64,000 nt of DNA, taken from Escherichia coli. Its GTDB lineage: Bacteria; Pseudomonadota; Gammaproteobacteria; Enterobacterales; Enterobacteriaceae. A program made the translations under genes and the position numbers. Below are positions 24,100 to 44,382 of this stretch, one piece after another (within the stretch, counting starts at the first letter, position 1; each line of letters opens with the position of its first letter). The stretch is taken from assembly GCF_051903065.1 (NCBI RefSeq), contig NZ_CP178438.1. One strand, written 5' to 3'. The notes under the pieces are model-generated. The model was not told the DNA's origin and did not search any database. It saw only the letters and a program-made list of their open reading frames with translations.

Positions 24100-25209
24100 T
24101 CACTTGGCTGCCGTGGATGAACCATCGGCGTGCCACTGGAAGACACCAAAATCAAATCCCTTAAGATCGCCTTTTTCATCCCAGTTCAGCGGCCCAATCA
24201 CGGTGTTTGCACCGTTTGCTTTTAAATCTTTCACCAGCGCCAGCGGCTCATCGCTGCCGGTACGTTCAAGGGCAGTTGCCAGAGATTGCACCGCCGCGTA
24301 AGTGATCCAGACATAAGGCCCGGACGGATCTTTCTTGTCTGCTTTCAGCGCATCAACGATGCCCTGGTTTGCCGGATCCTGGTCATAGCGTTTTGGCATA
24401 GTGACCAACATGCCTTCGGCGGCATCACCGGCAATGTTCGACAACGACGCATTACCCACACCTTCCGGCCCCATAAACTGGGTTTTCAGGCCAACGGAAC
24501 GGGCCTGGCGCAGCATCTGCCCCATTTCCGGGTAGTAACCGCCGTAGTAAACGAAGTCGATGTTTTCTTTTTTCAGGCGGGCGATCAACGCAGAGAAATC
24601 TTTCTCCCCGGCGGTAATACCGTCGAAGAAAACAACATTGGCGTTAGCCGCTTTCAGCCCGTCCTGCACCGAACGTGCCAGCCCTTCGCCATACTGTTGT
24701 TTGTCGTGAATGATGGCGATGCGCTGGGGCTTCACCGTCTCAAGAATGTATTTTGCCGCTGTAGGCCCCTGGGAAGAGTCCAGCCCGGCAGTACGCATGA
24801 TGTGTTGATAACCGCGTTGGGTCAGCTCCGGGTTGGTCGCTCCCGGCGAGATCATCAGAATACCTTCGTCTTCATAGATATCTGATGCAGGTTGAGTAGA
24901 AGAAGAACACAGATGACCAATAACGTATTTAATGCCGTCGTTAACGATTTTGTTGGCGACCGCAACGGCTTGTTTCGGGTCGCAGGCGTCGTCATATTCC
25001 ACGCCAACCAGCTTATCGCCTTTAATCCCCCCTTTGGCATTAATGTCTTTAATCGCCTGACGCGCGCCGTTAAATTCCATATCGCCCCACTGGGCAATCG
25101 GGCCGGACATCGCGCCGACAACGGCGACTTTAATATCGTCAGCCATAGCGGTGTGTGATATTGCCAGTGCAATCATCCCTGCGATGATAGTTTTCGCATT
25201 CCGTTTCAT
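24100..25209 (-). CDS. livK: leucine-specific periplasmic binding protein
   Basis: ORF 24100..25263; 369-aa form from [23 protein letters not shown] (signal peptide); paralog of livJ in this window. Confidence 0.9.
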
Positions 25210-25632
25210 AGTCAAAAATCCCCATTCGTGATGTTGTGTTGCTTTGTTCTTATGTGTTAACAAATCAGACTGTTCTTTTTTTATACTGCACTGTTTTTGC
25301 CTGTTTGATTAAGGGTTTAGCGCAGTATTTTGTGATAATAGCGATTAAAATCCCTATTTTTCAGTCGATTAAGAACAGATAATATTCTGAATTTATTGAT
25401 AGATAAACAGAAAAAGGTGCCTTTGTCAGCATAAAATAACGGCACAAAGGGCGGAATAATTCACTACCATTCAGGGGATTATGCTGGACATTTTTCATTC
25501 TCTAATGTTTTAACTTTGTAATTATTGCTGTTAAAAAATTAATCACCTGCCAAAAGAAATAAAAAAGAGAAAGCCTCCGATTAAATTATTTCGCTACACT
25601 GGTTCCACTTTTGTGATTTACACGGGTTACCC

Positions 25633-26016
25633 ATGAAGCTGACCATCATTCGATTAGAAAAATTTAGCGACCAGGACCGGATTGACCTGCAAAAGATCTG
25701 GCCGGAGTATTCCCCTTCCTCGTTACAGGTTGACGATAACCACCGTATCTACGCCGCGCGTTTTAACGAGCGCCTGCTCGCTGCCGTACGGGTAACCTTA
25801 AGCGGCACAGAGGGAGCACTGGATTCCCTGCGCGTGCGGGAAGTCACTCGACGTCGCGGTGTGGGGCAATATCTGCTGGAAGAGGTTTTGCGTAACAATC
25901 CTGGCGTTTCATGCTGGTGGATGGCGGATGCAGGCGTGGAAGATCGCGGTGTGATGACGGCGTTTATGCAGGCGCTGGGGTTTACGGCACAACAGGGCGG
26001 CTGGGAGAAGCGTTAA
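25633..26016 (+). CDS. panM: PanD maturation/regulatory factor (GNAT-like)
   Basis: 127 aa MKLTIIRLEKFSDQDRIDLQKIWPEY...; between livK and livJ as in E. coli. Confidence 0.85.
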   Translation: MKLTIIRLEKFSDQDRIDLQKIWPEYSPSSLQVDDNHRIYAARFNERLLAAVRVTLSGTEGALDSLRVREVTRRRGVGQYLLEEVLRNNPGVSCWWMADAGVEDRGVMTAFMQALGFTAQQGGWEKR

Positions 26017-41784: not shown

Positions 41785-42060
41785 GTGGCTTCTGTTTCTA
41801 TCAGCTGTCCCTCCTGTTCAGCTACTGACGGGGTGGTGCGTAACGGCAAAAGCACCGCCGGACATCAGCGCTATCTCTGCTCTCACTGCCGTAAAACATG
41901 GCAACTGCAGTTCACTTACACCGCTTCTCAACCCGGTACGCACCAGAAAATCATTGATATGGCCATGAATGGCGTTGGATGCCGGGCAACAGCCCGCATT
42001 ATGGGCGTTGGCCTCAACACGATTTTACGTCACTTAAAAAACTCAGGCCGCAGTCGGTAA
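41785..42060 (+). CDS. insA: IS1 InsA (transposition inhibitor / N-terminal part of transposase)
   Basis: 91 aa [43 protein letters not shown]... (GTG start). Confidence 0.93.
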
Positions 42061-42482
42061 CCTCGCGCATACAGCCGGGCAGTGACGTCATCGTCTGCGC
42101 GGAAATGGACGAACAGTGGGGCTATGTCGGGGCTAAATCGCGCCAGCGCTGGCTGTTTTACGCGTATGACAGGCTCCGGAAGACGGTTGTTGCGCACGTA
42201 TTCGGTGAACGCACTATGGCGACGCTGGGGCGTCTTATGAGCCTGCTGTCACCCTTTGACGTGGTGATATGGATGACGGATGGCTGGCCGCTGTATGAAT
42301 CCCGCCTGAAGGGAAAGCTGCACGTAATCAGCAAGCGATATACGCAGCGAATTGAGCGGCATAACCTGAATCTGAGGCAGCACCTGGCACGGCTGGGACG
42401 GAAGTCGCTGTCGTTCTCAAAATCGGTGGAGCTGCATGACAAAGTCATCGGGCATTATCTGAACATAAAACACTATCAATAA
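41979..42482 (+). CDS. insB: IS1 InsB frame (transposase InsAB' made by -1 frameshift at the A-run near 42036-42041)
   Basis: 167-aa -1 frame ORF overlapping the insA 3' end; slippery ttaaaaaac motif present. Confidence 0.9.
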
Positions 42483-42497
42483 GTTGGAGTCATTACC

Positions 42498-42506
42498 GAG
42501 CAGGCA
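42498..42506. repeat. IS1 target-site duplication, right copy (GAGCAGGCA)
   Basis: Identical 9-mer to 41721-41729. Confidence 0.8.
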
Positions 42507-42865
42507 ATGGCCACCGTTTATCTAACAGTGGCCATTTGATTTGAGGAAATGATGAAACATTATTCAGAAAATTAATTTAAAAAAACCATTCCTTAAGTCA
42601 AATATATATAAACGCCGAATAGCGATTAAATCCTTCTCAAAGAATGCACTGATAACATTGTGTTATTTTTATTGCCTCATTTTTCTCACTCACTTATAGT
42701 TGGTCCCTGCTGGCAGTAATTTAGTCATTTCAGAGATTTTTACTCTGATGTGCACTTACTGACTTATCTCACAAGTAATTTTTTCTCTAAATAAAGAATA
42801 GTGATGCCAGCAATTACAGTTAAAACTTGCTTTACTCGTAAAAACAATACTTTAATGGGGTTCTA

Positions 42866-43255
42866 ATGAGACATTACATGAAATGGTTTGCGGCTATTGC
42901 TGTTGTGGGTGCTTTAGCGGGTTGCGCGCGTACTGCGCCAATTGATCAGGTTCACTCAACCGTCAGCGCTGGTCATACCCAGGAACAAGTGAAAAAAGCG
43001 ATTCTGAAAGCTGGCGTTGAACGCAAATGGATTATGTCCGAAGCCGGACAAGGCATAATTAAAGCACGTCAACAGTCACGCGATCATTCAGCGGAAATAC
43101 GCATTAACTACACGGCATCCAGCTACGATATCAATTATGAAAATAGCCAGAACCTTCAAGCGTCAGGCGGACAAATTCATAAAAACTACAATCGCTGGGT
43201 CCGCAATCTCGACAAAGATATTCAACTGAATTTGTCAGCGGGCGCAGATTTATAA
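42866..43255 (+). CDS. small lipoprotein (first gene of the polyene-type cluster)
   Basis: 129 aa, signal peptide with lipobox MKWFAAIAVVGALAGC; alternative start ATG 42878. Confidence 0.75.
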   Translation: MRHYMKWFAAIAVVGALAGCARTAPIDQVHSTVSAGHTQEQVKKAILKAGVERKWIMSEAGQGIIKARQQSRDHSAEIRINYTASSYDINYENSQNLQASGGQIHKNYNRWVRNLDKDIQLNLSAGADL

Positions 43256-43314
43256 TTCCTCCTAAAGTCGGGCCGTTGCGGTCCGATAATAATTTAATTC
43301 CCTCTTAACAGGTT

Positions 43315-44382
43315 GTGCCCAACATGTACGAACAGGATTCTCTTAGCGCACTGGATGCGATTACCGAAGCTCAACGCATTGCCTTTGCCCCTATGCTTTT
43401 TCAAACAGCACTCTGCCTACGTAATGCGGGTGTACTTTCATATCTGGATCGGCAAGGCAAACATGGCGCAACGCTGGCTGATATCACCGAACATAGCCAT
43501 ATCAACGAATATGCTGCCAGCGTTCTGTTAGATATGGGCTTAAGCGGGCGAATTATTACCTGTAAAGAGGGAATTTATTACCTGGCGAAAATCGGTCATT
43601 ACCTCCTGCATGACACTATGACTCGCGTGAATATGGATTTCACCCAGGATGTCTGTTACCAGGGGCTCTTCTTCCTCGCCGATTCACTCAATGAAGGAAA
43701 ACCTTCCGGGTTAAAAGTATTTGGCGACTGGTCGACGATATATCCGGCACTTTCGCAATTACCAGACGCCGCTCGTGAAAGCTGGTTTGCGTTTGATCAT
43801 TACTATTCAGATGGCGCATTTAACGCCGCACTGCCTTATGTATTCGCCAACAACCCCACAACATTGTACGATGTAGGCGGCAATACGGGTAAGTGGGCTT
43901 TGCGTTGCTGCAAATACAATGAAAACATCGCCGTGACGTTATTAGATCTGCCACAACAAATCGTACTAGCGAAAGAAAATATCGCGAATGCAGGTTTTTC
44001 TGATCGCATAGATTTCCATGCGGTGGATATGCTAAGCGATGCCCCATTACCGGGCGAGGCTGATATCTGGTGGATGAGCCAATTTTTAGACTGTTTTTCA
44101 CCCGAACAAATAATTAGCATACTCAGCAAAATTGCCAGCGTAATGAAGCCTGGCGCAAAAGTTTGCATCATGGAGTTGTTCTGGGATGCGCAGCGGTTTG
44201 AAGCAGCATCGTTTAGCCTGAACGCGTCCTCACTTTATTTTACCTGCATGGCAAACGGTAACAGCCGTTTCTATAGTGCAGAGAAATTTTACGACTATCT
44301 GAATAAAGCAGGATTCCAGGTAGCAGAGCGCCACGATAATTTAGGCGTTGGGCATACACTTTTGATATGCCAAAAGAAATAA
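43315..44382 (+). CDS. class I SAM-dependent (O-)methyltransferase
   Basis: 355 aa; SAM-binding motif LYDVGGNTGKWAL; GTG start at 43315, alternative ATG at 43324. Confidence 0.8.
   Translation: MPNMYEQDSLSALDAITEAQRIAFAPMLFQTALCLRNAGVLSYLDRQGKHGATLADITEHSHINEYAASVLLDMGLSGRIITCKEGIYYLAKIGHYLLHDTMTRVNMDFTQDVCYQGLFFLADSLNEGKPSGLKVFGDWSTIYPALSQLPDAARESWFAFDHYYSDGAFNAALPYVFANNPTTLYDVGGNTGKWALRCCKYNENIAVTLLDLPQQIVLAKENIANAGFSDRIDFHAVDMLSDAPLPGEADIWWMSQFLDCFSPEQIISILSKIASVMKPGAKVCIMELFWDAQRFEAASFSLNASSLYFTCMANGNSRFYSAEKFYDYLNKAGFQVAERHDNLGVGHTLLICQKK

Follow-up and report, generated by a model that had tools for sequence, protein, structure and literature searches.

A conserved hairpin behind apeA and the possible uncoupling of a lipoprotein gene from the aryl-polyene cluster of Escherichia coli

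Main finding

The lipoprotein gene apeA, the first gene of an aryl-polyene (APE) biosynthetic cluster of Escherichia coli, is followed just past its stop codon by a hairpin that is conserved in most of the Enterobacterales loci compared. We propose that one regulated promoter in the AT-rich tract upstream of apeA drives the cluster, and that the hairpin acts as a leaky terminator or 3' stabiliser that uncouples apeA from apeB-R. We give this reading a probability of roughly 45%. The elements found are of ordinary, well-understood kinds and lie in a known cluster; the hairpin is more conserved than a single sequence could show.

The window, i.e. the whole stretch of 64,000 nt that was analysed, is a part of an E. 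coli chromosome. The comparative set comprised 80 loci with relatives of ApeA, one genome per species. The main features are collected in Table 1.

APE clusters are said to rank among the most widespread biosynthetic gene clusters of bacteria, and they affect the oxidative-stress resistance and biofilm formation of pathogens (PMC8253772). Under laboratory conditions they are largely silent. The likely promoter at 42672–42700, the corrected start of apeA and the hairpin behind this gene provide handles for their activation and study. Moreover, the analysis accounts for the tendency of apeA to act as a separable unit.

Table 1. Coordinates of the features around apeA (positions in the window)
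Feature	Position	Strand	Description
IS1A insertion (insA/insB)	41730–42497	+	Directly 5' of the AT-rich tract; 9-bp target duplication gagcaggca at 41721–41729 and 42498–42506
Terminator-like hairpin	42506–42545	+	Arms 42506–42518 and 42524–42536, then TTGATTTGA tail; parted from yhhT by IS1
AT-rich DNA 5' of the promoter	42546–42671		A7 and T5 runs; composition
Predicted sigma-70 promoter of apeA	42672–42700	+	-35 TTGCCT 42672–42677, 17-bp spacer, -10 TATAGT 42695–42700
Predicted 5' UTR	42707–42865	+	About 159 nt; Shine-Dalgarno GGGG at 42857–42860
apeA	42866–43255	+	First gene of the APE cluster; precursor of a lipoprotein, 129 aa, with lipobox LAGC, Cys20 and Ala at +2
Conserved RNA hairpin	43267–43287	+	9 bp, 3-nt loop, 11 nt past the apeA stop; tail AAUAAUUUAAUU
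Spacer and apeB initiation block	43288–43323	+	AU-rich; conserved block CTTAACAGGTTGT, AGG 43311–43313
apeB	43324–44382	+	O-methyltransferase, PF00891 E 6.7e-18; first biosynthetic gene 3' of the hairpin

Identity and distribution of the locus

The order of elements in the window was yhhS (minus strand), yhhT (plus strand, ending at 41709), IS1A, the AT-rich leader and a run of plus-strand genes. According to the annotation of identical RefSeq genomes, this run encodes a lipoprotein, a methyltransferase, a ketosynthase chain-length factor, a lysophospholipid acyltransferase, two acyl carrier proteins, a COG4648 protein and an AMP-binding protein. It is the known APE biosynthetic cluster, and its first gene already has a name: the gene is called apeA (c1204) in strain CFT073 (PMC8253772). 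The initial annotation had recognised the gene but not its name, and it contained neither the IS1 element nor the hairpin of yhhT that lies within its leader.

Of 5426 complete E. coli genomes, 569 had the version of the cluster between yhhT and acpT, in one copy each, and O157:H7, O55:H7 and O145 were among them. A CFT073-type version with about 70% DNA identity occupied a different chromosomal site (256 records). In genomes free of the island, homology with the window stopped at the yhhT stop codon. The search of plasmids gave a single match, to a record of 4.9 Mb which is clearly a chromosome. The yhhT–acpT site is presumably the island OI-138 (O-island 138) of O157:H7. De Lay and Cronan reportedly described the same cluster in 2006 as O-island 138 of O157:H7.

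An APE cluster directly 3' of yhhT was also seen in many genera of Enterobacteriaceae (Citrobacter, Klebsiella, Lelliottia, Enterobacter, Kosakonia and Atlantibacter). It looks as if the yhhT site of the cluster is ancestral and was lost in K-12-like E. coli, rather than being the site of a recent insertion.

From apeB onwards, the junctions measured 40 nt (apeB–apeC) and then -4, -26, 11, 4 and -4 nt. The genes behind apeA had been described as tightly overlapped. This is mostly right for the later junctions (-26 to +11 nt) and wrong for apeB–apeC with its 40-nt gap.

The left edge of the leader

The AT-rich leader had been placed at 42498–42865. Position 42498 is no natural boundary, because it is the first base after IS1A. 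The insertion point of IS1A lies 12 nt 3' of the yhhT stop. The duplicated 9-mer is single-copy in an IS-free genome (L002), and only 4 of 5426 complete E. coli genomes have this IS1 junction in common.

The inverted repeat at 42506–42536 has 13-nt arms that are 92% complementary (-17.7 kcal/mol, z -2.98) and is followed by TTGATTTG. We read it as the yhhT terminator because it lies 17 nt past the yhhT stop in IS-free genomes such as L002. The first 48 bases of the supposed leader consist of the IS1 target duplication and this hairpin. The real leader therefore spans about 42546–42865. The IS1 element sits upstream of the yhhT terminator hairpin and does not extend into the AT-rich tract; little effect of the insertion on the apeA promoter would be expected. 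Besides the two hairpins, a search of the region for direct and inverted repeats gave just short pairs consistent with chance.

An AT-rich tract with a footprinted promoter

The GC content of 42498–42865 was 32.6%, compared with 53.6% for the window, and only 0.25% of 368-bp windows were as low; 'markedly AT-rich' was a correct description. Across loci, the 370 bp upstream of apeA were at least 8 GC points under the locus mean in 78 of 85 cases (mean 0.37 vs 0.51). Judged from these loci, APE clusters generally have an AT-rich tract upstream of apeA. The sole other tract in the 64 kb with a 368-bp GC of ≤36% was located at 25161–25709, upstream of a minus-strand ORF (24100–25263).

In a consensus scan of 42300–43500, TTGCCT-17-TATAGT was the sole sigma-70-like match on the plus strand, with 9 of 12 hexamer positions matching. 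This match alone proves nothing, because the number of sigma-70-like sites in the region was no higher than in shuffles. Conservation adds to it: ttATTTnnATTGATA-N17-TATACT was present upstream of apeA in 11 further loci, at a distance of 165–210 nt (300 nt in one). These loci belong to another Escherichia species, Citrobacter (seven loci), Klebsiella indica and K. michiganensis. The conserved columns of a nine-species alignment were the ATTG of the -35 and the TATAnT of the -10, with the spacer and flanks drifting.

A sigma-70 promoter at 42672–42700 is thus likely, footprinted phylogenetically across Escherichia, Citrobacter and Klebsiella, and the suggestion that the AT-rich region holds a promoter was borne out. 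Because the hexamers are conserved across species, we predict a transcription start near 42707 and the 5' UTR given in Table 1. The 5' UTR showed no significant fold (z -0.70), and an Rfam scan of 42400–43450 at E ≤1 returned no match. A 20-codon uORF (42804–42866) that ends in TAATG on the apeA start was also considered. It is probably fortuitous and was treated as a chance product, because the closest other Escherichia species (Escherichia sp. E1V33) has ATA in place of its ATG.

The AT-rich DNA 5' of the promoter is, going by its composition, a possible UP element or nucleoid-protein binding zone. Silencing of the leader by H-NS or StpA would be compatible with every transcription model considered here. 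It is plausible, if tentative, on the grounds of composition (32.6% GC over 368 bp with A/T runs), of the accessory status of a locus found in 569 of 5426 genomes, and of the temperature dependence of the paralogous CFT073 cluster, whose expression is higher at 37 °C than at 23 °C. The CFT073 cluster is also induced by overexpression of TosR (PMC8253772), and the Xenorhabdus cluster is silent in the laboratory (bioRxiv 10.1101/2020.12.19.423268). On the other hand, the high-affinity motif TCGATAAATT was absent from 42498–42865 at ≤2 mismatches, AT-rich intergenic DNA is commonplace, and our literature search found no paper tying H-NS to APE clusters.

apeA and its product

The first gene had been called a small lipoprotein gene at 42866–43255, and this was correct in extent and type: it has 129 codons for amino acids, a lipobox and a conserved start. 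The signal peptide and lipobox, MRHYMKWFAAIAVVGALAG-C20, match the pattern [LVI][ASTVI][GAS]C, and each of the 81 distinct homologues has kept the lipobox cysteine. The lipidated cysteine is followed by Ala21, not Asp. In E. coli lipoprotein sorting, a residue other than Asp at this position predicts the outer membrane, and ApeA is predicted to be an outer-membrane lipoprotein.

RefSeq/PGAP sets the apeA start at 42878 (125 aa), but other species carry Ile, Val or Ala in place of this methionine. In a comparison of 17 species, the ATG at 42866 was conserved across genera, together with its Shine-Dalgarno sequence (GGGG/GGGAG). Since this start is conserved and Met5 is not, the RefSeq start is probably four codons short.

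ApeA is 64% identical to the CFT073-type ApeA. Neither Pfam nor NCBIfam has a family covering it, and its AF2 model had a pLDDT of 85. A profile search found 3690 cluster representatives, 2225 of them at E ≤1e-10, with tandem-duplicated forms among them. Two distant members of the profile were checked, and both lay within APE-type clusters. The gene comes first, ahead of apeB or apeC, in 83 of 84 loci. When apeA was deleted from the CFT073 cluster, the pigment stayed and the mature APE lipid was lost (PMC8253772).

The hairpin behind apeA is conserved as RNA

A GC hairpin had been noted between apeA and the methyltransferase gene, and it was confirmed: GUCGGGCCG-UUG-CGGUCCGAU (43267–43287) folds with -14.3 kcal/mol (z -3.9 vs shuffles). 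A hairpin of ≤-10 kcal/mol beginning ≤25 nt past the apeA stop was found in 70 of 82 distinct Enterobacterales loci. Compared with dinucleotide shuffles, the 60 nt past the stop had a mean z of -3.05 (65 of 82 below -2). The mean z of the control segment upstream of apeA was -0.35 (6 of 81 below -2).

The stem TCGGGCC/GGCCCGA occurs in most Enterobacteriaceae and is almost invariant across many genera. Otherwise the stems at this position are unrelated from one genus to the next, also in the more distant genera: Atlantibacter has AACCGGCC/GGCCGGTT, Dickeya GAGCCGAATA/TATTCGGCTC, Xenorhabdus AAGCCTATC/GATAGGCTT and Morganella an A/T-rich stem of 14 bp. For the close group, RNAalifold gave 8 pairs, and compensatory double changes were present in 3 of these. 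The non-Watson-Crick cells of this group numbered 36. All were G-U on the sense strand and none was A-C; 2 cells were other mismatches.

The presence of G-U and absence of A-C cells on the sense strand argues for a selected plus-strand RNA structure, not a chance one, rather than a DNA palindrome. The inverted repeat could still be thought of as a palindromic double-stranded DNA operator for a regulator of apeB-R, as the near invariance of TCGGGCC/GGCCCGA goes beyond what pairing needs. We regard this as very improbable: such a strand bias is unexpected for a DNA palindrome, the stems of the more distant genera are unrelated, and no regulator gene was seen in the annotation of the locus.

REP or BIME identity was rejected. 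The hairpin motif has one site in the window and occupies one place per genome. Across the 519 kb of the compared loci it matched 68 times, and 66 of these matches lay just past apeA, at the 3' end of this gene.

The hairpin belongs to apeA

The hairpin is kept at the apeA stop under four sets of circumstances: in loci lacking apeB, with 180–500 nt ahead of apeC; in Serratia proteamaculans (L084), whose apeA is divergent from the cluster; in loci with 120–180-nt insertions behind the hairpin (L015, L035); and in a distant metagenomic cluster (L086). Because of this constancy of position, we take it to be a 3' element of apeA. C. koseri (L017) is the one exception, with an 83-nt insertion between the apeA stop and the hairpin.

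Structured insertions of 80–180 nt were seen in the apeA–apeB spacer of Citrobacter amalonaticus S646 (L015:3391–3577), Serratia sp. DD3 (L035:3391–3636) and C. koseri (L017:3391–3541). The hairpin and the apeB ribosome-binding block were retained on either side of them. These insertions may be small mobile repeats.

A perfect TATAAT (43251–43256) overlaps the apeA stop. No -35 lies at 16–18 bp from it, and TTGTCA is found 13 bp upstream. This hexamer could be a weak internal promoter for apeB. If transcription started from it, the hairpin could be the 5' end and 5' stabiliser of an apeB transcript, like the ompA 5' stem-loop. The hexamer ends 10 nt ahead of the stem, and the C. koseri insertion puts the hairpin on the apeB side. 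However, the hairpin is kept at the apeA stop without apeB, with a monocistronic divergent apeA and with insertions downstream of it. The U-runs behind the hairpin in several genera are sensible only for the formation of a 3' end, and the TATAAT-like sequence is largely set by the last codon and TAA and is not conserved. A role as 5' stabiliser is thus very improbable, and the assignment to the 3' end of apeA is preferred.

Neither a canonical terminator nor a classical attenuator in E. coli

The spacer between apeA and apeB measures 68 nt up to the conserved, annotated ATG at 43324. The gap of 59 bp given before results only if a non-conserved GTG at 43315 is taken as the start. The block CTTAACAGGTTGT stays beside apeB in L015 despite the 120 nt inserted after the hairpin, and it is read as the ribosome-binding region of apeB.

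No U-tract follows the E. coli hairpin: its tail is AATAATTTAATT, with 4 T in the best 8-nt window. A consensus terminator scan did not call it. The d'Aubenton-Carafa discriminant, which we re-implemented with modern energy parameters so that its thresholds are approximate, was -29.2 in E. coli and above 0 in only 8 of 82 loci. Loci scoring as canonical terminators were those of Atlantibacter, Superficieibacter, Pantoea latae, two other Enterobacteriaceae and one Citrobacter freundii assembly. The low score in E. coli is explained by the tail AAUAAUUUAAUU; lacking a U-tract, the hairpin is no canonical terminator there. It resembles Rho-independent terminators in being a GC-rich stem-loop a few nucleotides past a stop, with true terminators at the same position in some genera. 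It differs from them in the missing U-tract and the discriminant of -29.

An attenuator controlling entry into the operon had also been suggested. In the strict sense this did not hold up. No alternative antiterminator pairing was conserved in 18 relatives, with the single hairpin alone being conserved, and hence the hairpin is no classical attenuator; the Rfam scan without a match and the unstructured 5' UTR point the same way. A long-range helix (43240–43247/43313–43320) that would mask the region before the apeB start reached z -3.1 in E. coli and was dropped because it was not conserved in the 18 relatives. Another reading, prompted by the near-invariant TCGGGCC/GGCCCGA stem, is that the hairpin is a sequence-specific cis-regulatory RNA. 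It would be bound or processed by a host or cluster factor, would gate the amount of transcription or translation that reaches the APE biosynthetic genes, and would form a dedicated checkpoint together with the AT-rich silenced promoter. We consider this quite improbable.

One transcription unit or two

The initial annotation had proposed two transcription units as one possibility. In its explicit form, the hairpin (possibly with host factors) would end a monocistronic apeA mRNA, and apeB-R would be transcribed from a promoter of their own in the 3' end of apeA or the spacer. Separability of apeA as such is well founded. In 8 of 82 loci, among them those of Atlantibacter, Superficieibacter and Pantoea latae, apeA is followed by a canonical hairpin with a U-run, and gaps of 180–500 nt precede apeC in loci that lack apeB. 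In Serratia proteamaculans (L084:1–3360) and a metagenomic contig (L085:3108–5402), apeA is divergent from apeC–apeH. Going by gene orientation, the divergent apeA of these two loci is certainly a transcription unit of its own.

For E. coli, several points speak against two independent units. The tail of the hairpin is AAUAAUUUAAUU with a discriminant of -29, and the promoter scan found no plus-strand site in 42701–43500. The TATAAT at 43251–43256 is in favour of a promoter there, but the nearest -35-like hexamer, TTGTCA, is just 13 bp from it. In addition, apeA and apeB-I are co-induced in CFT073. Two independent units in E. coli are rather unlikely. The idea thus stands as far as the separability of apeA in the family is concerned, and it is the less likely reading for the E. 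coli locus without a U-tract.

We prefer a single regulated promoter with a leaky or stabilising hairpin. In this model, one sigma-70 promoter (42672–42700) in the AT-rich tract would start transcription about 159 nt ahead of apeA, and it would probably be kept low and condition-dependent. The transcript would encode ApeA and then reach the GC-rich hairpin 11 nt past the apeA stop. As the E. coli hairpin has no U-tract, we infer that most polymerases read through it into apeB-R. The hairpin would halt a fraction of the polymerases, or shield the apeA part of the mRNA from 3'-exonucleases once the AU-rich stretch behind the hairpin has been cut, or both. The apeA mRNA would then be more abundant or more stable than the mRNA encoding the enzymes. 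In some genera, the hairpin behind apeA would be a full terminator.

A single promoter is supported by the lack of a plus-strand promoter match in 42701–43500 and by the short distance of just 36 nt from the hairpin to the ATG of apeB. Expression data come from CFT073, where the log2 fold changes at 37 °C vs 23 °C were 1.46 for apeA, 1.98 for apeB and 2.12 for apeC, down to 1.26 for apeI and fading to 0.3 at apeR (PMC12890032 supplement). The ApeA, ApeB and ApeC proteins were increased at 37 °C as well (PMC12890032 supplement). These figures are fold changes from a paralogous cluster with 70% identity and not transcript structures; the co-induction of apeA and apeB-I fits a shared upstream promoter or read-through without proving one. 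In the Sakai strain, ECs4325–4340 were reported to be induced by spinach lysate.

Some observations count against the preferred model and in favour of two units. Several relatives have a canonical terminator after apeA, and a TATAAT is present at 43251–43256. In Xenorhabdus doucetiae, whose cluster is silent, an arabinose promoter (P_BAD) before apeB switches on the whole pathway and suffices for full APE lipids (bioRxiv 10.1101/2020.12.19.423268). Because apeA is divergent in two loci, and 180–500 nt precede apeC in the loci without apeB, the arrangement of the genes indicates that at least some members of the family have a second promoter, which serves the biosynthetic genes.

Comparison with known systems

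The closest known system is the APE_Ec cluster of CFT073 (Johnston et al. 2021, PMC8253772). Both clusters have the order apeA-apeB-apeC-apeD-apeE-apeF-apeG-apeH, and in both the first gene encodes a 129-aa lipoprotein. The CFT073-type locus also has a long AT-rich upstream region and a hairpin behind apeA. The differences concern the position, as the version in the window is located at yhhT–acpT, and the identity to the CFT073-type copy (about 70% for DNA and 64% for ApeA). The CFT073-type promoter is also different (TTGACA-18-TATATT, 88 nt upstream of apeA), and the strain of the window has an IS1 beside the leader.

The promoters of bgl and proU are AT-rich and silenced by H-NS. Like them, the apeA region has its promoter in strongly AT-rich DNA and belongs to an accessory locus with poor laboratory expression, and a temperature dependence is seen in the CFT073 paralogue. 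It differs in that the high-affinity motif is absent. Unlike the activating insertions of bgl, the IS1 here lies outside the AT-rich tract.

Intercistronic stem-loops are known to give unequal expression within operons, e.g. the malE-malF REP, the Rhodobacter pufBA hairpin and the papA 3' hairpin. The apeA hairpin shares several properties with them. It is a stable hairpin just past the first cistron, without a strong U-tract and with an AU-rich stretch behind it. In these systems, too, a structural or envelope protein is encoded ahead of the stem-loop, and enzymes and transporters are encoded behind it. In contrast to the malE-malF REP, it is not a REP element and is unique in the window and site-specific. 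The hairpin behind apeA is a conserved RNA-level stem-loop between cistrons on the same strand and probably serves to decouple their expression.
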